Assembly: GCF_000189295.2 (NCBI RefSeq)
Contig: NC_016803.1
Coordinates: 1,800,001-1,832,000, forward strand
Source: Pseudodesulfovibrio mercurii
GTDB lineage: Bacteria; Desulfobacterota; Desulfovibrionia; Desulfovibrionales; Desulfovibrionaceae
DNA length: 32,000 nt
Direction: 5' to 3'
In this document: one piece after another, positions 352 to 15,314 of the stretch
How the letters are laid out: each line of letters starts with the position of its first letter
How positions within the stretch are numbered: position 1 is the first letter of the stretch
The notes under the pieces: model-generated
Seen by the model: only the letters and a program-made list of their open reading frames with translations
The model's database searches: none
Told to the model about the DNA's origin: nothing
Made by a program: the position numbers and the translations under genes

Positions 352-428
352 CGGGGCGTGGCGCAGACTGGTAGCGCGCCTGCTTTGGGAGCAGGATGCC
401 GGGGGTTCAAATCCCTTCGCCCCGACCA
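352..428 (+). tRNA. tRNA-Pro (anticodon UGG)
   Basis: Cloverleaf read by hand. Acceptor CGGGGCG/CGCCCCG; D arm GCGC-AGACTGGTA-GCGC; anticodon stem CCTGC/GCAGG with loop TTTGGGA (anticodon TGG); T loop TTCAAAT; discriminator A and an encoded CCA. Length is 77 nt. Confidence 0.93.
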
Positions 429-4195: not shown

Positions 4196-4297
4196 ATGTC
4201 CGTACCCGCTATCATCATGATGCTCGTCGGCCTCGGCGTCACCTGGGGCGGCGCAGCCTACTGCATCCGCCTGGCCATCAGACGGAACCGACAGTAA
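4196..4297 (+). CDS. MetS-like small subunit of the NSS importer (33 aa, absent from the ORF track)
   Basis: AAGGAG at 4184-4189 precedes ATG 4196. Translation is MSVPAIIMMLVGLGVTWGGAAYCIRLAIRRNRQ*, a single TM segment with a WGG motif and a basic tail, located directly after the NSS gene. Confidence 0.65.
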   Translation: MSVPAIIMMLVGLGVTWGGAAYCIRLAIRRNRQ

Positions 4298-4310
4298 CCG
4301 ACGCAAACGA

Positions 4311-4344
4311 AAAGGGGCGCTCCTCGCGGAGCGCCCCTTTTTTT
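4311..4344 (+). terminator. Rho-independent terminator of the NSS operon
   Basis: Stem ggggcgctcc (4314-4323), loop tcgc, stem ggagcgcccc (4328-4337), then T7. An A-run lies upstream. Confidence 0.85.
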
Positions 4345-4381
4345 GTCCCCTTCCCCCCTGGACCCCCCAACCCCTCTCTCT

Positions 4382-4549
4382 CCCTCCTAAACTTTTTGTC
4401 GCCGCTTCGCGGAGTGTGCGGCATGGCGAAAAGGCCTACTTCTTTTCCCCACATCCCACCCCTCCGACATCCCGCGTCCGCACGGCCCTGCCGAAGGCAC
4501 ACAAAAAGTTTGGGAGGGTCCAGGGAACCCTTTTCAAAGGGTTCCCTGG
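4382..4549. repeat. Nested inverted repeats in a convergent intergenic region
   Basis: ccctcctaaactttttgt (4382-4399) pairs with acaaaaagtttgggaggg (4501-4518) at 17 of 18 positions. There is also a perfect 13-bp hairpin ccagggaaccctt-ttca-aagggttccctgg (4520-4549). Confidence 0.6.
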
Positions 4550-4592
4550 TCTCCCCGAAGGGGCCGCCGGAGGCCCCGTGCGGGCCGGTCGT

Positions 4593-5117
4593 CTACAGTC
4601 CCTTTTTCTCGAAGAACCGGAAGAGCAGGACGGCTCCGACGGCCAGGACGATGACGGGAATCCAGTGGTTGACGCCGAGCAGGGAGCCCCAGGTGAGCTT
4701 GCCGTAGTCGCCCCAGGCGAGAACCGAGGTCTTCATGGCCGGGTAGGCTTCGGCGTACAGGGCGGCGCCGAACCAGCCGCCGAGGATGCCCCAGAGGCCG
4801 TCGAAGCGTCCTTCGCCGAACGCACCCCATGCGGTACCTGGACAATAGCCGAGCATGGCCCAGCCGACACCGAATAGCGTGCCGCCCACGAGCTGCGCAC
4901 CAAGAGAAGTGGGTTTGACTTCCAGGGAGAGCATGCCGAGGTCGAGAAAGAGATGGATGAGGATGGCCGCGACCACGATGGCCGAGAACATGAACTTGAC
5001 GATGGTCATGTCCTTGAAGAGGAGCGCGCCGAGCTGTTTGTCGAAGCGCAGGACGCGGGCGCGTTGCAGGAGCACGCCGAAAAGGACGCCGGTGAAGAGG
5101 CCGAATGCGAGCGTCAT
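4593..5117 (-). CDS. YeeE/YedE (sulfur-transport domain) family membrane protein, second half-size subunit
   Basis: MTLAFGLFTGVLFG...GYCPGTAWG motif. The ATG lies 1 nt after the upstream TAG, and a GGAGGG Shine-Dalgarno sits inside the upstream gene end. Confidence 0.8.
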   Translation of the reverse strand: MTLAFGLFTGVLFGVLLQRARVLRFDKQLGALLFKDMTIVKFMFSAIVVAAILIHLFLDLGMLSLEVKPTSLGAQLVGGTLFGVGWAMLGYCPGTAWGAFGEGRFDGLWGILGGWFGAALYAEAYPAMKTSVLAWGDYGKLTWGSLLGVNHWIPVIVLAVGAVLLFRFFEKKGL

Positions 5118-5118
5118 G

Positions 5119-5640
5119 CTATTTCCCTCCGTAGAGCAGCCGGGCGGCAACGGCCCCGCCCGCGAAGAAGGCGATCATGGCCAGGGTGCCGCTGATGGTC
5201 AGCTGGGCCATGCCGGACAGGCCGTGCCCGCTGGGGCAGCCTCCGGCCATGCGTGCGCCGAACAGGGCGACGGTGCCGCCGACGAAGGCGAGAACGAAGC
5301 GCAGTCCGGGCCGCGCGCCGTAGCGGGCCTGCCATCTGTCGGGCAGGGAGTTCCAGGCGTAGGAGCCCGAGAAGTTGGCGGACAGGTAGGAGCCGAAAAA
5401 GATGCCGAGGACGAACAGCCACTGCCAGTCGATACCGTTGTTCTTGCCGAAATACTTCATGAAATAGTCCGTGGCCTGGACGTGCTGCGGGGCCAGGGTC
5501 ATTTCGACCAGACCCACGGAGCGGACATAGGAGGTGGACGCGCCGAAGTACTTGCCCACCAGGAGCACGGACAGGGCCAGGAGCACACCGGTCAGCGCCC
5601 CGGCCAGATACGGATTCATGCCTTTATCGATAGTTTTCAT
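5119..5640 (-). CDS. YeeE/YedE (sulfur-transport domain) family membrane protein, first half-size subunit
   Basis: GARMAGGCPSGHG motif. The ATG at 5640 is preceded by AAAGGAGGG. The track start at 5664 is a TTG with no Shine-Dalgarno. Confidence 0.8.
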   Translation of the reverse strand: MKTIDKGMNPYLAGALTGVLLALSVLLVGKYFGASTSYVRSVGLVEMTLAPQHVQATDYFMKYFGKNNGIDWQWLFVLGIFFGSYLSANFSGSYAWNSLPDRWQARYGARPGLRFVLAFVGGTVALFGARMAGGCPSGHGLSGMAQLTISGTLAMIAFFAGGAVAARLLYGGK

Positions 5641-5818
5641 GGGACCCTCCTTTGGGGATTTCAAAGGGGAATAATACAGATTCGGCGGAAAATGAAAAGA
5701 AGACTACCGTCCGGGGCGGGAATACGCGAAATCGTCACATCCCCCCTGTTTGCGGAGGGTTGGGGAAAGGAGTGTTGACAAGCGGTCCGGGGGGTTGGTA
5801 TTTGTGAGATCTGCTCTG

Positions 5819-9874: not shown

Positions 9875-11122
9875 ATGTCCGTCATCATCCGAAAGAGCCT
9901 GCTCGAACTGATCTTCTCCGGCGCGTTCATGAAGCGCTGGAACGACAAGCTGCGGCCCATGGAGCTGGTCGAGGTGGACAAGCAGGGGCACAAGATGATC
10001 GTGGCCTGGCTGCTCTTCCTGCTCAACTCGCGGGACATGGACGTGGCCCGCAAGCGGGCGCTCGGCGAGTCGATCATCGAGGGCGGCATCTTCGACTACC
10101 TGTACCGGCTGGTCATCACGGACATCAAGCCGCCGGTCTTCTACCGCATCAAGGAGAACGCCGAGGACTACCGGACGCTGACGGCCTGGGTCCTCCGGGA
10201 GCTGACCCCGCGCATCATGCCGCTGGGCGAGGACTTCATCCGGCGCATGGGCGAGTACCTGATGCACCCCGAGGACAAGGGGCTGGCCCGGCGCATCCTG
10301 CACGCCGCCCACCTGTACGCCAGCTATTCGGAATTCAAGCTGCTCAAGTCCATCAACCGCATGGACCACGAGCTGCTCGAGATCGAGCAGAGCTTCATCG
10401 ACCGGCTGGAGGCCATGCGCGACCTGAACGGCGTGGCCGAGCTGCTCGACGAGGACGGCACGGTGCTCGGCGGGTTCGCGCGCATGTGCGGGCGGCTGCG
10501 GTTCCAGAAGCGCTGGTCCCAGACCCCGCGCGTGCCCGAGACCTCGGTCCTGGGCCACATGTTCATCGTGGCCGCCTACTCCTGGTTCTTCTCCATGGAG
10601 GTGGGGGCTTGCCGGGCGCGCAGCCAGAACAACTTCTTTTCCGGCCTGTTCCACGACCTGCCCGAGCTGCTGACCCGGGACATCATCTCCCCGGTCAAGG
10701 GGGCCTCCCAGGACATCAGCGAGCTGATCCACGAATACGAGATCCTGGAGCTGAACCGGGTGGTCCTGAACCCCCTCAAGGAGGGTGGCTACACGGACAT
10801 CACCGAGCGCCTGGAGTACTTCCTGGGCCTTGCGGTGGGCAGCGAGTTCAAGGCCACGGTGATGCTGGACGGCGTGGTCTCCGAGGCCTCGGAGACCGAC
10901 CTGGCCGGGCGCTACAACCACGACACCCTGGACCCCAAGGACGGCCCCCTGCTCAAGGTCTCGGACGCCCTGGCCGCCTACATCGAGGCCCACACCGCCC
11001 TCAAGAACGGCATCTCCTCGGACCAGCTCCACCACGCCCTCTATCGCATCCAGCTCAAATACAAGGAACACCCGATCGTTGCCGGGGTCCAGGTCAGCGC
11101 CCTGCTGGCGGATTTCGACTAG
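9875..11122 (+). CDS. HD-domain phosphohydrolase (YfbR-like motifs, internally duplicated)
   Basis: QKRWSQTPRVPETSVLGHMF ... GLFHDLPELLTRDI. The ATG at 9875 is preceded by AAGGGAG. Confidence 0.75.
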   Translation: MSVIIRKSLLELIFSGAFMKRWNDKLRPMELVEVDKQGHKMIVAWLLFLLNSRDMDVARKRALGESIIEGGIFDYLYRLVITDIKPPVFYRIKENAEDYRTLTAWVLRELTPRIMPLGEDFIRRMGEYLMHPEDKGLARRILHAAHLYASYSEFKLLKSINRMDHELLEIEQSFIDRLEAMRDLNGVAELLDEDGTVLGGFARMCGRLRFQKRWSQTPRVPETSVLGHMFIVAAYSWFFSMEVGACRARSQNNFFSGLFHDLPELLTRDIISPVKGASQDISELIHEYEILELNRVVLNPLKEGGYTDITERLEYFLGLAVGSEFKATVMLDGVVSEASETDLAGRYNHDTLDPKDGPLLKVSDALAAYIEAHTALKNGISSDQLHHALYRIQLKYKEHPIVAGVQVSALLADFD

Positions 11123-11135
11123 CGGGCGAAAAGCA

Positions 11136-11158
11136 AAGCCCCTCTAATTGAGGGGCTT
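11136..11158. terminator. Hairpin at the core/islet boundary (aagcccctc-taatt-gaggggctt)
   Basis: 9-bp perfect stem 14 nt after the HD gene stop. A T-rich tract follows only on the minus strand (tgcttttc). Confidence 0.4.
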
Positions 11159-11408
11159 AAAATGATAATCGAATTAGAAAAGACATACCGGGATCAATTG
11201 AATATTCGGGTGTTCTTCCGGCATATTTTCTGGAATATTAACCGGCTTGGGTTGCTAAACTGATCACCGTTTCCGGCCTGTCAATGAACGCGGGGAGTGA
11301 AAATGTGGTGAAATGCAGACCACCTAACCTCCTTACTATTTTCGTAAAAAGGTCACAATAAGCACAAATTGCGGCGCCATTGAAGCGACCTTCATATTTC
11401 ATAATGAA

Positions 11409-12875
11409 TTACACATTAAATGCTTTACCTTGGATTATCGACAAACCTTCTCGGTAGAGCATGGGCACTTTATATGACTGTCCAAACTTTTCAAGAAAAC
11501 CAATTTCTTCTAACTGTTTAACAGCTAGCAGTAATTCCCCGCCTTCTTTTCCAAGCAACACCGATAACGATTCTATATTGTGCTCGCTCTTTTGGCCCTC
11601 AAATTTGTATATTAATGCGACAGACTCCCCTGCTTCTGCCATTAGCGTATCTTCAACACGTGTATGGCTAAGCTTTGACAATGCACGCCGTATCGCATCA
11701 GATTCAATTATGGGATAATCCGCAGAATAGAGTCTAGGCTCTCTATTTTCACGACGCAACTGAGCCTCCCTAGCAAGGAAAACCAAATCGATCAAATTAC
11801 GGGGAGGTTTTATATTATTCCCGTCTCGAATTCGTGACATTATCCAATTCCAGCATGTTGGCTTCCTATCTCCCACATCAACCTGTTCTGGGAAAACCCT
11901 ATTAAAAATTTTGTCATTAGTGGAATCCGTTAGCTTTAATGACGATATTAATTCTTGGTTTTCTTTTAACCTCTCACATAACAGGTTAAGTAAATCTTCC
12001 TCATCCCAGACGATCTCTGTCTTGTTTGCATTAATATGCGTTAGATTAACGAACCCATCCCCTATAATTTTTCGAAAAAGGTCACATCGGACAAATAGTT
12101 TAATTTTAATATTCGAAAATTCAAGCATGTCAAGACAAGTTCTAAGCAATGCTCTCAGTGCAGGAACTTCTATATTTGGATATCCTTGGAATGCCTCATC
12201 CAATCTATCAAGGACAAACCACGCAGTCACACCAAGCTCTTTTACACATTCGTTGCATATACGAAGAGCATCCTCATGTGAAACCTCTTGATATTCTTCT
12301 TTTTTATTGTTGCTATATTCATATTTCTGTACAAAAATCGGCACCCCTGTTTCTGAAAAAGTCAGGCTAGATTCTACTGAATCAGGGTGCAAAAACCTTT
12401 TCACCAAATTAGCGAGCTTACCAAACACAGTTGCTGGAGAATCACTGTCCAAACGCAATCCAGAATCTCTTAATATCGAATCAAGTTTGGCAAATTTTTT
12501 GGAACCTTCTCCATCTGCAATCGATAAAACCCAATTCCCAACAAGAGACAGGATGTAAACCTTCCAAATACTTTTGTATTGCCCCTCAGTCAGGGGCTTA
12601 TCCTGTGTCAATTTCTGAAAGACAGGACTTCCTGTGGGATTAAAAGCGGTTAAAATCTCAATGTTTTTGAGTTCGGGCAATTGCCGTTGTCGACTGATAA
12701 TCATTCGATAGAGTGCGGTTTTACCCGTTCCTTTATCCCCAGCAATGACGTCAACCCGCCCCTCTATCAACGCCCTGAACGCCTCAGTTTCGACGAAATA
12801 TTTATCAAGAGCATCATCGTACTCAGCAACGGAATTTCCTATAAAAATGCTCCTGACATAATCAACCATCTCCAT
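11409..12875 (-). CDS. P-loop NTPase, KAP/Sll1717-like, 488 aa (function unknown; defence candidate)
   Basis: Walker A is AGDKGTGKT (12717-12743) and Walker B-like is AWFVLDRLDEAF. A KPPRNLIDL motif and a wHTH-like C-terminus are also present. GGAGG lies 7 nt upstream of ATG 12875. The track start at 12923 has no Shine-Dalgarno. Confidence 0.8.
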   Translation of the reverse strand: MEMVDYVRSIFIGNSVAEYDDALDKYFVETEAFRALIEGRVDVIAGDKGTGKTALYRMIISRQRQLPELKNIEILTAFNPTGSPVFQKLTQDKPLTEGQYKSIWKVYILSLVGNWVLSIADGEGSKKFAKLDSILRDSGLRLDSDSPATVFGKLANLVKRFLHPDSVESSLTFSETGVPIFVQKYEYSNNKKEEYQEVSHEDALRICNECVKELGVTAWFVLDRLDEAFQGYPNIEVPALRALLRTCLDMLEFSNIKIKLFVRCDLFRKIIGDGFVNLTHINANKTEIVWDEEDLLNLLCERLKENQELISSLKLTDSTNDKIFNRVFPEQVDVGDRKPTCWNWIMSRIRDGNNIKPPRNLIDLVFLAREAQLRRENREPRLYSADYPIIESDAIRRALSKLSHTRVEDTLMAEAGESVALIYKFEGQKSEHNIESLSVLLGKEGGELLLAVKQLEEIGFLEKFGQSYKVPMLYREGLSIIQGKAFNV

Positions 12876-12990
12876 TTGTCTGCCTCCGCTCCTTACTTTG
12901 AATATCGTCAATCGATATCTCACCTAATAAAAGCATGCAAGGAGCAATGCAAGGGTAGTAAAGAAGGCCCCAAAGAGAATAAATCTCCAT
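12862..12990 (-). CDS. Possible 42-aa single-TM micro-protein overlapping the NTPase start
   Basis: MEIYSLWGLLYYPCIAPCMLLLGEISIDDIQSKERRQTNGDG*. Its stop overlaps the NTPase start (ATGGAGATGGTTGA). It has no Shine-Dalgarno. A TATACT -10-like hexamer (12999-13004, minus strand) would make it leaderless. Confidence 0.2.
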   Translation of the reverse strand: MEIYSLWGLLYYPCIAPCMLLLGEISIDDIQSKERRQTNGDG

Positions 12991-13051
12991 CCATCTAGAG
13001 TATACCCCAGTTCGACAACAGCAAGCGTAATGAAAACCGTCCAAACGGCAG

Positions 13052-13090
13052 CAAAAAGGCCTTGGCTGACAATGTGTCAACCAAGGCCTT
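13052..13090 (-). terminator. Rho-independent terminator (minus strand) between rlmD and the islet gene
   Basis: On the minus strand, aaggccttgg-t-tgaca-cat-tgtca-g-ccaaggcctt is followed by TTTTTGC. Confidence 0.7.
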
Positions 13091-13229
13091 GATTGTAATT
13101 TGACTGTCCTGGCAGCTTCCGGAATATCGCGGGGCGCTCGGCTATAGAGAGCGCACCGGCCCACCTTGCCCCTGCCACCGGACCGGCTGACGGCCGGGGC
13201 TCTACGCCCCCGTCAGGGGGCCGGTCCGC

Positions 13230-14612
13230 CTACTTGCGTTCCAGCAGGGTCACGGTCTCGATGTGGTGGGTGTGGGGGAACATGTCCACGGCGCGGGCGC
13301 GGGTGAGGGTGTAGTGTTCGGAGAAGCGCTTCACGTCGCGGGCCAGGGTGGTGGGGTCGCAGGACACGGCCAGGATCTTTTTCGGGGCCAGGGTCAGAAT
13401 GGCCTGGGCCGTGCTCTCGTGGATGCCCGCGCGGGGCGGGTCCACCACCAGGACGTCGGCCTTGGGCAGCCCCTTGAGGGCCGCCGGGCTGTCCAGGGAG
13501 GCGGCGGTGAATTCGCAGTTGGTCAGCTTGTTCAGCTTGGCGCTGGCCCAGGCCTTGGACACGGCCTCCTCGCTGACCTCCACGCCCACGACGCGGCGCG
13601 CCTGGTCGGCCAGGAAGATGCCGATGGCCCCGCAGCCGCAGTAGAGGTCGAGCACGGTCTCGACGCCCGTGAGGCCGCAGAACTCGCGGACGGTGCCGAA
13701 GAGCTCGCCCGCACCGGCGGTGTTGGTCTGGAAAAAGGCGTTGGGTCCGAGGTGGTAGCGCACCGTGCGGTCGCCGTGCGCGACCTCCTCGGTCACGGTG
13801 CGGGCGCCCAGGCGGAAGACCGCCTTCTCGCCCGTGGCCGCCAGGGAGCGGCGGGCGCGCGAGGAGTGGACAAAGGAGGTCAGGTCCGGGAAGCGGTCGG
13901 CCAGCGACTCGCCCAGCGCCTCGGCCTGGCCGTAGTCGTCCGGGGCCTCGGCCGTGATCAGGTGGACCATGATCTCGTTCAGGGCGGTGTGGCGGACCAC
14001 CAGATGCCGCCAAAACCCGGTGTTGTCGGCCGGATCGTAGGCGGACAGGCCCGAGGCGCGGACGAAGTCGCGGGCCGCGCGCAGGATGTCCACGTCCCGC
14101 GAGGCGCACAGATGGCACTCCTCGATGTCCAGGACCGGGGCCAGCCCCTTGTCCCCGGCCGGGAGCGTCGCGCGCAGCCCCAGACGCGGGCCGTCCTCGC
14201 CCTGCTCGAAGGCGAATTCCATCTTGTTGCGGTAGTTCCAGACCGCGGGCGACGGCGCGGGCGGGTCCAGAACGAAGTCCGCCGCCCCGCCGATGCGCCG
14301 CAGGGCGTTCTCCACCTGGGCGGCCTTCTGGGCCACCTGCTCGGCGTAGTCCAGGTCCTGGACCGCGCAGCCGCCGCAGGAGCCGAAGTGCGCGCATTTC
14401 GGCTCCACGCGATGGGGCGAGGGCGCGGTCACGCGCTCCAGCACGGCCTCGGCGAACCGCTTCTTGGCCTTGACCACGCGGGCCGTGACCGTGTCGCCGG
14501 GCAGGCCGCCCGCCACGAACACGGCCATGCCGTCCACATGGGCCACGCCCCGGCCGCCGAAGGCCAGGGACTCGATGGAACACTCTATGACGTCGTCTTT
14601 CTGCAAGGGCAC
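13230..14612 (-). CDS. rlmD: 23S rRNA (uracil-C5)-methyltransferase RlmD/RumA family
   Basis: TRAM-like N-terminus, Fe-S motif CAHFGSCGGCAVQ, and DPPRAG and VSCDPTTLARD methyltransferase motifs. I prefer the GTG at 14612 (GGAGG 5 nt upstream). The longest ORF starts at GTG 14651. Confidence 0.88.
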   Translation of the reverse strand: MPLQKDDVIECSIESLAFGGRGVAHVDGMAVFVAGGLPGDTVTARVVKAKKRFAEAVLERVTAPSPHRVEPKCAHFGSCGGCAVQDLDYAEQVAQKAAQVENALRRIGGAADFVLDPPAPSPAVWNYRNKMEFAFEQGEDGPRLGLRATLPAGDKGLAPVLDIEECHLCASRDVDILRAARDFVRASGLSAYDPADNTGFWRHLVVRHTALNEIMVHLITAEAPDDYGQAEALGESLADRFPDLTSFVHSSRARRSLAATGEKAVFRLGARTVTEEVAHGDRTVRYHLGPNAFFQTNTAGAGELFGTVREFCGLTGVETVLDLYCGCGAIGIFLADQARRVVGVEVSEEAVSKAWASAKLNKLTNCEFTAASLDSPAALKGLPKADVLVVDPPRAGIHESTAQAILTLAPKKILAVSCDPTTLARDVKRFSEHYTLTRARAVDMFPHTHHIETVTLLERK

Positions 14613-14724
14613 GGGAGCCTCCTCGGTTCCGGTTCGCCCACAGAATGGCACACCGGGACGCGGTATACAATGATTGGTCGCTGGGGGTTTGACACGGATT
14701 TCCCCGCCTGTCTATGGTTATGCC

Positions 14725-15033
14725 ATGCTCGACAAGGCCACCGCCCTGCCCGTCCTGCTGCGCAGGCTCGACACGCTGCCCGTGGGCCACGCCCTGGACC
14801 TGCGCACCTACAAGCGCAACCGCTCGGTGCTCGTCCGGCGCGCGGGCGCGGACCGCTATGACGTGACCGAGGACGGCTTCCGCCGGGAAACGTTCCGGGT
14901 CCCGGCCGCCGACCTGAAAAAGCTGCTCAAGACCCTGTTGAAGAGGGAGTTTCCCCGGTCCACCAAGCTCCGGGTCTACGACCTGGGCGCGGCCGAGGGC
15001 GACGATCTGCCCACGGGGCGCAAGGTCATATGA
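14725..15033 (+). CDS. Small conserved hypothetical protein (102 aa), paralog A
   Basis: Coding GC3 bias. It shares an LP..L.RL.TLP.G..L.L.T.KR.R.V.VRR ... LKREFPRS.K pattern with the next ORF. Confidence 0.6.
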   Translation: MLDKATALPVLLRRLDTLPVGHALDLRTYKRNRSVLVRRAGADRYDVTEDGFRRETFRVPAADLKKLLKTLLKREFPRSTKLRVYDLGAAEGDDLPTGRKVI

Positions 15034-15314
15034 TCGACCTCGGCGCGGCCCTGCCCACGGCCCTCTCCCGGCTGAAGACGCTGCCCGACGGCGCGGTCCT
15101 GACCCTGCTGACCTTCAAGCGCGACCGGGGCGTGGCCGTGCGCCGGGTGGACGACGGCTTCGAGGTCCGCGAGTTCGGCTACCGCGACGAGACCGTCCTG
15201 GAGGACGCGGACGGACTCAGGAAACGGCTCAAAGGGGCGCTCAAACGGGAGTTTCCCCGGTCCAACAAGGTCCACCTGCTGGTGGACGACGGGGAAGAGG
15301 CGCGGCCCCGCTAG
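15030..15314 (+). CDS. Small conserved hypothetical protein (94 aa), paralog B
   Basis: ATGA start/stop overlap with paralog A. Hand alignment gives about 40-45% identity to A, including the exact motif LKREFPRS. Confidence 0.6.
   Translation: MIDLGAALPTALSRLKTLPDGAVLTLLTFKRDRGVAVRRVDDGFEVREFGYRDETVLEDADGLRKRLKGALKREFPRSNKVHLLVDDGEEARPR

Follow-up and report, generated by a model that had tools for sequence, protein, structure and literature searches.

Among the known systems closest to the gene examined here is DS-41, a single-gene anti-phage system of the DefensePredictor study. This E. coli protein (construct AAA2, WP_033812887.1, 502 amino acids (aa)) is listed there as validated, with lower plating efficiency on several BASEL phages. 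It has homologs noted as far as Halobacteria, and the defence protein listed there as nearest to it is an Avs1B entry of AVAST type I (HHblits, 98.1 probability at 0.52 coverage) (PMC13092281). Comparison can also be made with the ORC/Cdc6 clade of ATPases, whose defence members are BrxC and BrxD of BREX and RdrA of RADAR. Three features mark this clade: strand 2 is followed by an insert, an arginine finger is present, and the C-terminal part forms a helical bundle, to which BrxC adds a winged helix (PMC12839542). Here we analyze a 32,000-nt stretch of the Pseudodesulfovibrio mercurii genome (NC_016803.1, positions 1,800,001 to 1,832,000; hereafter the window) in which an AT-rich cassette lying between two host genes carries a single gene for a P-loop ATPase (hereafter the window ATPase). 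A preliminary description made from the letters alone took this cassette to be a candidate undescribed defence-type system. Our analysis places the ATPase in a catalogued family, and by analogy with its distant relative DS-41 we think it fairly probable that the protein is a single-gene anti-phage (anti-invader) defence protein.

Judged by its profile match, the window ATPase is a member of the Sll1717 family as NCBI defines it. The NCBIfam model NF047389 ('P-loop ATPase, Sll1717 family') aligns to residues 12-463 over model positions 1-417 of 454 with 179.8 bits (E 1e-52), well above the curated cut-off of 75 bits, which bears out the Sll1717 family named in the preliminary description. The same model matches all 84 diverse representatives of the clade, and homologs in Burkholderia, Pseudomonas and Rugamonas bear the Sll1717-family name; the model is of the 'subfamily' type, which confers a name without a function. 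DS-41, in the shortened 399-aa form given in the published supplement (PMC13092281), scores 92.2 bits on NF047389 over model positions 1-341. The two proteins both pass the family cut-off and are therefore both Sll1717-family members. In addition, the equivalog model built for DS-41 (NF053860, 'DS41_1 anti-phage protein') is matched by 71 of the 84 representatives at E ≤1e-5.

Like the window ATPase, DS-41 is a stand-alone P-loop ATPase of about 500 aa with no effector domain, and the motifs of the two proteins are collinear: GxxGxGK(S/T), hhhD-x-LDE, W-x-x-(D/N)-(E/D)-L and PRxLIxL follow one another in both, with VLIDKLDE at the Walker B position and SPRELIKL at the lid motif of DS-41. DS-41 nevertheless belongs to another clade of the Sll1717 family, and validation against phages concerns DS-41 only.

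The preliminary description had matched the protein to no named system and had called the function of its family uncharacterised. Given the validation of DS-41, neither 'undescribed' nor 'uncharacterised' holds any longer for the family as a whole. The PADLOC candidate model PDC-M28C also matches the ATPase, at 64.4 bits (E 2.1e-18) in three partial stretches, the best covering residues 199-308, PADLOC setting no cut-off for this model. Because the family is catalogued, one of its members is validated and structural relatives are known in defence, the window ATPase does not represent an undescribed system. The ATPase also has a full-length match in PHROG 14159 (4e-66), a group of unknown function. 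A search of the accessible literature for Sll1717, PDC-M28 and PF24389 found no mention of these names, and the DefensePredictor supplements contain no mention of Sll1717 or of the Walker A string of the clade.

The family is large. More than 1,154 homologs were present among the scored candidates, and almost every one of the top 120 is a full-length protein of about 485-515 aa that shares 53-91% identity with the window ATPase; their hosts include Burkholderia, Pseudomonas, Rugamonas and Vicinamibacteria. Searched against 1.84 billion representatives, the clade profile retrieved 2,564 clusters (50% identity) at E ≤1e-3 and 522 at E ≤1e-30. Four long relatives (P0248, P0264, P0206 and P0218) bear extra C-terminal R3H and OST-HTH/LOTUS nucleic-acid-binding domains, a second ATPase module or an S-adenosylmethionine (SAM) methyltransferase domain, although the methyltransferase case may be a gene-call fusion.

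The cassette and its parts, in the order in which they lie on the minus strand, are as follows.

11130..13096, minus strand: horizontally acquired cassette (terminator, leader, ATPase gene, 3' untranslated region (UTR), terminator), 1,967 bp, 40.9% GC
13056..13090, minus strand: 5' insulating hairpin followed by a U-run, found as an inverted repeat (−33.5 kcal/mol, z −7.65)
12876..13055, minus strand: leader and presumed promoter region, with the Shine-Dalgarno sequence GGAGG at 12883-12887
11409..12875, minus strand: gene for the 488-aa ATPase, assigned to the Sll1717 family and predicted to be an ORC/Cdc6-/STAND-like AAA+ protein; ATG start, stop codon at 11409-11411
12717..12740, minus strand: Walker A motif GDKGTGKT, residues 46-53 (K48, G49, G51 and K52 invariant in the 84 representatives)
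12231..12623, minus strand: residues 85-215, a helical insertion that separates strand 2 from the Walker B strand, from the secondary structure of the AlphaFold2 model, with loops of low predicted local distance difference test (pLDDT) score
12195..12221, minus strand: extended Walker B motif WFVLDRLDE (hhhhD-x-L-D-E type), residues 219-227 (W219, D223, L225 and D226 invariant in the 84 representatives)
11784..11810, minus strand: KPPRNLIDL motif, residues 356-364; P358 and R359 are invariant and open the lid helix 358-378
11412..11600, minus strand: C-terminal winged helix, residues 426-488, modeled by AlphaFold2 as helices plus a beta-hairpin (pLDDT >90)
11159..11408, minus strand: 3' UTR of about 250 nt, between the stop of the gene and the 3' hairpin
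11136..11158, minus strand: 3' hairpin that terminates the cassette, with nine pairs (six G-C) and a T-rich tail (−16.6 kcal/mol, z −3.3)

The gene itself is as first described, a 488-codon open reading frame (ORF) with its own ribosome-binding site, now supported by the ORF list, the sequence and an alignment of 50 homologs. The GGAGG lies 7 nt upstream of the ATG, and the alignment favours this start over an upstream GTG at 12923. Both Walker motifs and KPPRNLIDL fall on invariant or near-invariant columns of the family, R263 and D265, in the two strands that follow Walker B, are invariant as well, and every family-invariant residue is retained in the window ATPase in the alignments of the 50 homologs and of the 84 representatives. 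The insertion, a candidate specificity or sensor region, is the most variable part of the protein: its columns hold 1.46 bits on average, compared with 2.2-2.55 for the ATPase core, and its length varies between 111 and 142 aa. KPPRNLIDL had been likened to the PRxI motif of KAP-type nucleoside triphosphatases (NTPases). The motif is indeed present and conserved, but the KAP comparison fails: Pfam KAP_NTPase gives no match at E ≤1, no transmembrane helices are inserted in the P-loop domain, and the features shared with KAP NTPases are limited to a P-loop and a PRxxI-like motif. R359 instead reads as a probable sensor-2-type arginine at the start of the lid helix. Together, R263 and R359 are candidates for an arginine finger and a sensor-2 arginine acting in an oligomer.

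Pfam recognizes no further domain up to the end of the winged helix (residue 488), in keeping with the earlier statement that the protein has no effector domain. No transmembrane segment was found either, the highest 19-residue Kyte-Doolittle mean being 1.37 (residue 102) against the usual threshold of 1.6. The isoelectric point (pI) is 5.4 for the whole protein and 5.3 for the winged helix.

We used AlphaFold2 with a 50-sequence alignment and Foldseek to compare the predicted fold with known structures, as the preliminary description had proposed for the C-terminal region. The model (pLDDT 85.4, predicted TM-score 0.83) runs from N-terminal helices through strand 1 and the P-loop, strand 2, the insertion of about 130 aa and the Walker B strand to two strands that carry R263 and D265, a helical lid opened by P358-R359, a long helix and the winged helix, where a helix-turn-helix-like end had been noted earlier from the sequence. 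Full-length matches in the PDB are led by Cdc6/Orc1 (2qby_A, 2e-6) and include many ORC/Cdc6 chains and the archaeal ATPases SSO1545 and PAB2304 (entries 2fna and 2qen listed), followed by BrxC (9zll and 9zdx, 2e-5 to 1e-4) and RdrA (8hr8, 7e-4); RFC, MuB and TnsC match more weakly. Global TM-scores are low (0.3-0.4), as can be expected of flexible multi-domain proteins. A viral structure library returned weak AAA+ matches only, and PDB sequences searched with the family profile gave no match. The predicted fold is thus an ORC/Cdc6-/STAND-like AAA+ core with a lid and a winged helix, and the model agrees with the ORC/Cdc6 clade in having a helical insert after strand 2, a helical lid and a winged helix in this order.

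In Pfam, the profile matches all stay below their cut-offs. The ORC-CDC6-like family PF24389 reaches 19.1 bits against a cut-off of 27, over the P-loop region only, although some homologs carry a precomputed PF24389 match; NACHT reaches 13.9 bits (cut-off 26.7) and nSTAND3 15.5 bits (cut-off 27.2), and AAA_22 and NPHP3_N are among the other sub-threshold P-loop matches. The D-x-L-D-E form of the extended Walker B motif WFVLDRLDE resembles that of NACHT-type STAND NTPases. Like the window ATPase, STAND NTPases (NACHT, bacterial NLR-like and Avs/AVAST proteins) have a core, a helical domain and a winged helix in the same order, but the window ATPase lacks their C-terminal repeat sensor and their N-terminal effector. 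It also differs from the BREX and RADAR ATPases, in that its insert is much larger (about 130 aa) and no BREX or RADAR partner genes are present, and BrxC, at 1,200-1,300 aa, has further domains.

The islet that holds the gene is the only strongly AT-rich stretch of the window, as had been noted: 500-nt windows over 11001-13000 have GC contents of 0.37-0.46, whereas all remaining windows in the 32 kb have at least 0.58. For the cassette as a whole GC is 0.409, versus 0.663 in the remainder of the window, where the lowest 2-kb value is 0.627. GC at third codon positions (GC3) is 0.36 in the ATPase ORF, versus 0.97 and 0.94 in the neighbouring HD-domain and rlmD genes. The first outline of the islet, 11123-13140, holds as to its foreign nature and not as to its ends, which lie at 11130 and 13096; positions 13097-13229 are GC-rich (0.71), outside the foreign unit and on the host side. 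The two hairpins reported earlier on either side of the gene are those listed above, and the 5' one would block read-through from rlmD into the cassette. Scanning the leader with a simple consensus yielded no sigma-70 promoter call. In agreement with the preliminary description, we found no terminal inverted repeat or target duplication at the cassette ends and no recombinase among the ORFs listed for the islet.

The cassette is flanked by the two host genes already named as its borders, given below with their Pfam matches; a separate hairpin lies on the rlmD side.

9875..11122, plus strand: host HD-domain gene (HD_3, YfbR-like), left border (Pfam HD_3, E 6e-25)
13179..13228, directly after the rlmD stop codon: GC-rich hairpin with 21-nt arms, an inverted repeat distinct from the 5' hairpin of the cassette and probably rlmD's own terminator
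13230..14651, minus strand: host rlmD-type gene (TRAM plus tRNA_U5-meth_tr, Pfam E 3e-26), right border

The product of the HD gene shares 95% identity with its Pseudodesulfovibrio karagichevae counterpart and 93% with the Desulfovibrio caledoniensis protein. A tblastn search of 80 Desulfovibrionales loci that carry the HD gene found a relative of the ATPase in none of them. In the two closest genomes (L007 and L008), DNA synteny with the window stops at 11121/11122, the HD stop codon, and picks up again at 13228-13239, the rlmD stop codon. The gap between these genes holds other cargo in both: a 301-aa protein without known function, a SAM methyltransferase and a periplasmic binding protein in L007 (7245-10873), and a PEP-CTERM protein plus the same periplasmic binding protein in L008 (7245-9346). 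The binding-protein gene adjoins rlmD in these two genomes; the window lacks it. More distant relatives have rlmD immediately upstream of the HD gene, with both genes on one strand, whereas in the window and its two closest relatives it lies downstream and convergent, with cargo that differs per genome. The junction is a rearranged, variable and lineage-specific spot, because distant relatives have rlmD directly upstream of the HD gene and close ones have varied cargo.

We found a second copy of the cassette in a different setting. The protein closest to the window ATPase (P0001, 91% identical) is encoded on a 2.2-kb Logan contig, L087, which aligns with window positions 13096-11130 over 1,976 bp at 87% DNA identity. 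The match covers both hairpins, the leader, the gene and the 3' non-coding stretch of about 280 nt, and the DNA beyond it differs on both sides. The 5' hairpin differs between the copies by one compensatory change (GG..CC to GA..TC), the 3' terminator hairpin and the Shine-Dalgarno sequence are kept, the final 80 nt or so ahead of the ATG are nearly identical, and the 3' UTR is 84% identical. About 110 nt from the end of the L087 cassette, direct reading shows the 3' end of a tRNA on the opposite strand (2150-2181), comprising the T-loop GGTTCAAATCC and CCA; ARAGORN called no tRNA on L087 because the contig end cuts the tRNA gene. At the locus of a more diverged homolog (L171, 69% identical), alignable DNA is confined to the coding part and the 3' UTR is not conserved.

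Taken together, the low GC and GC3, the absence from the 80 related loci, the breaks in synteny at two stop codons and the 87%-identical copy in another context make the islet a foreign, recently imported, self-contained expression cassette, which the preliminary description had likewise called foreign.

The two copies also bear on whether the gene is active. The ratio of nonsynonymous to synonymous divergence between them (dN/dS) is 0.15, with a dS of 0.31, so the ATPase gene is under purifying selection; this and the retention of every family-invariant residue mark it as functional. Were the cassette a decaying or silent hitch-hiker without current function in this genome, its extremely foreign codon usage (GC3 of about 0.95 in the host) could limit expression, and the failure of the simple scan to call a promoter would be in line with such silence. 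The intact ORF with all of its invariant residues, the low dN/dS and the conservation of the Shine-Dalgarno sequence and both terminators in L087 speak against decay, and we regard it as very improbable.

Between the same two copies, the non-coding flanks of the gene (window 11123-11408 and 12876-13096) are 83-84% identical, versus about 74% at synonymous sites, a difference that may point to a degree of constraint on the leader or 3' UTR. Several candidate features in these regions were considered and rejected. A 42-aa hydrophobic ORF on the minus strand (about 12990-12862) that overlaps the start codon is interrupted by a stop in its L087 counterpart, and a 34-aa ORF on the plus strand in the 3' UTR is frameshifted there. 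A leader hairpin that would pair with part of the Shine-Dalgarno region has a fold z of just −2.8, and its pairing is broken in L087. The 3' UTR has no Rfam match and a fold z of −2.7, which gives no case for a non-coding RNA, and six-frame translations searched with the family profile score at most 2.5 bits, which gives none for a pseudogene remnant. The 3' UTR (11331-11357) shares a direct repeat of 27 nt, at 78% identity, with the coding sequence at 12060-12086, where the conserved CDLFRKII motif is encoded; this repeat is probably due to chance, because profile searches of the translated flanks give no pseudogene signal.

The genomic company of the homologs was examined at 85 loci and is of a defence- or mobile-element-like kind. 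No partner family recurs among 294 neighbour ORFs, in support of the insulated, solitary state first noted for the window gene; integrases form the largest neighbour cluster (5 loci), ahead of type I methylases and IS110 (3 loci each). Among 149 neighbours within two genes, Pfam identifies Phage_integrase in six, N6_Mtase, HsdM_N, Mrr_cat and the IS110 transposase in three each, and Resolvase, rve, BrnA and phage tail/baseplate families in two each, and PADLOC finds up to six type I methylases. The homolog gene is AT-richer than its flanks at 41 of 45 loci, by 0.08 on average. Individual settings include a Pseudomonas homolog between phage-tail or pyocin-like genes and umuDC, a Vicinamibacteria homolog directly upstream of a type I restriction-modification (R-M) operon plus GmrSD, and a Burkholderia homolog that directly follows an integrase, within an island that also encodes PAAR toxins and a NACHT protein. 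One further locus adjoins IS110, one lies in a region like an integrative and conjugative element (ICE) with a relaxase, integrases, HipA and Abi genes, and one sits among serine recombinases, Bro-N and DUF4145. In IMG/VR, about 30 prophage-like contigs have full-length members, which by their coordinates lie mostly near contig ends; at the 29 of these loci that were scanned, the neighbours include integrases (7), SRAP/umuDC, P4-type primases, Ogr/Delta and terminases. As an observation in its own right, the ATPase gene at three of the 85 loci (L003, L113 and L167) shares its strand with type I R-M genes at intergenic distances of at most 61 nt, an arrangement reminiscent of other defence genes that sit inside type I R-M operons.

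Such neighbourhoods, mobile-element- and R-M-like as they are, might also suit a protein that serves the elements themselves. The ATPase could be an ORC/Cdc6-like initiator, a loader, a partition-type ATPase or a MuB/TnsC-like target selector left over from an integrative element, as its best structural matches are the replication initiators Cdc6/Orc1, with RFC, MuB and TnsC among the weaker ones; homologs accompany integrases, ICE genes, insertion sequence elements and prophages, and one weak plasmid match is annotated as a ParA family protein. A role in element maintenance fits poorly with a solitary gene that lacks conserved origin-like repeats, a transposase or a partner gene, and with homologs that occur in many unrelated types of element and inside type I R-M operons but hardly at all on plasmids and nowhere in the curated phage collection. 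In addition, the family member DS-41 protects against phage when cloned alone (PMC13092281). We therefore consider maintenance quite unlikely.

The embedding in R-M operons bears on a further alternative, namely that the ATPase is a component of a larger system (the three-gene PDC-M28, or an R-M- or BREX-like scaffold) whose partners are elsewhere or lost, leaving an orphan with little or no activity. PDC-M28C, the model matched by the window ATPase, is the C gene of a multi-gene candidate, and the structural relatives BrxC and RdrA function only in multi-protein systems (PMC12839542). The cassette, by contrast, is a single gene between two host genes and its homologs have no recurrent partner, no neighbour family recurring past a few loci; PDC-M28 models are absent from the 25 most frequent PADLOC families among the 149 neighbours, a tally of families rather than a query for the A and B models one by one. 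Strong purifying selection separates the two copies of the gene, the cassette has terminators and a Shine-Dalgarno sequence of its own, and DS-41 works as a single gene. An orphaned component thus seems unlikely.

Finally, the ATPase might be an accessory protein with a non-defence cellular role (in stress, regulation or nucleic-acid metabolism) that was acquired by chance. The lack of an effector domain and the high conservation across phyla would agree with such a role, as would the R3H or OST-HTH/LOTUS RNA-binding domains of some long family variants. Its patchy distribution, with the gene absent from 80 relatives, the low-GC signature that persists in 41 of 45 hosts, the neighbourhoods rich in mobile elements and R-M genes, and the relationship to DS-41 all point elsewhere, and we rate a non-defence role as improbable to the same degree as maintenance. 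All four of these alternatives are less well supported than a role in defence.

Several observations nevertheless count against a defence role. The window ATPase scores 44.7 bits on the DS-41 equivalog model (E 9e-12, best stretch residues 17-64), far under its cut-off of 370 bits, which the shortened DS-41 sequence itself misses at 325.9 bits. The likeness to DS-41 is visible via family hidden Markov models only, since BLASTP gives an E of 0.46 and an hhalign comparison of the clade profile with DS-41 as a single sequence gives a probability of 40% (E 3e-4) over the Walker B-to-lid region only. Conservation across phyla, at 54-62% identity, is unusually high for an immune sensor, and the acidity of the protein and of its winged helix disfavours simple DNA binding. 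The curated phage collection contains no family match, and plasmids give four weak matches only, one of them the ParA-annotated protein. The neighbourhood data are suggestive, being raw counts without a matched background. Lastly, the protective output of a protein without an effector domain is conjecture.

If the window ATPase does act in defence, it would rest as an inactive nucleotide-bound monomer and sense a phage-derived trigger, most likely through the variable insert. ATP-dependent oligomerisation would then follow via Walker A K52, Walker B D223, D226 and E227, R263 and the sensor-2-like R359. Because the protein has no enzymatic effector domain, we propose that the assembled ATPase itself would interfere, for instance by binding phage nucleic acid, or a component of replication or packaging, and sequestering it; alternatively, it might engage a conserved host factor.

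The window also contains features that lie apart from the cassette. Two adjacent half-length Sulf_transp (YeeE/YedE-like) membrane protein genes lie on the minus strand at 4593-5150 and 5119-5664, and the segment that holds them (4280-5759), of normal GC, is absent from D. caledoniensis, which has 168 bp in its place. On the plus strand, two tandem overlapping small ORFs (14674-15033 and 15030-15314; 119 and 94 aa) encode proteins that are 51% identical to each other (E 2e-21) and match no Pfam family. A tRNA-Pro (TGG) at 352-428 (plus strand) is the sole RNA gene that Rfam or ARAGORN identifies in the window.

A bolder reading joins two proposals, which we put forward jointly as a tentative and rather unlikely possibility. 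The clade would consist of immune proteins with a new mechanism, minimal ORC/Cdc6-/STAND-like ATPases that need neither an enzymatic effector nor partner genes to protect the cell, and the cassette would be a promoter-to-terminator 'plug-in' that shifts between genomes without a recombinase of its own. In such effector-less immunity, the ATPase could assemble on some conserved element of the invader's nucleic acid, or of the machinery for replication or packaging, and block it directly, and the conservation across phyla would reflect recognition of an invariant target.

A defence role, if true, would enlarge the experimentally supported reach of the Sll1717 family, for which one tested E. coli protein now stands; searches with the clade profile find about 2,560 clusters at 50% identity. 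The clade is large, highly conserved and present in several phyla, and it offers a clean test case of how a single AAA+/STAND-like ATPase can halt phage when it has no pore-forming, nuclease, protease or NADase domain. With its 2 kb the cassette is small and self-contained, hence easily cloned. The two diverged copies in differing contexts show that such genes can move as minimal insulated units.

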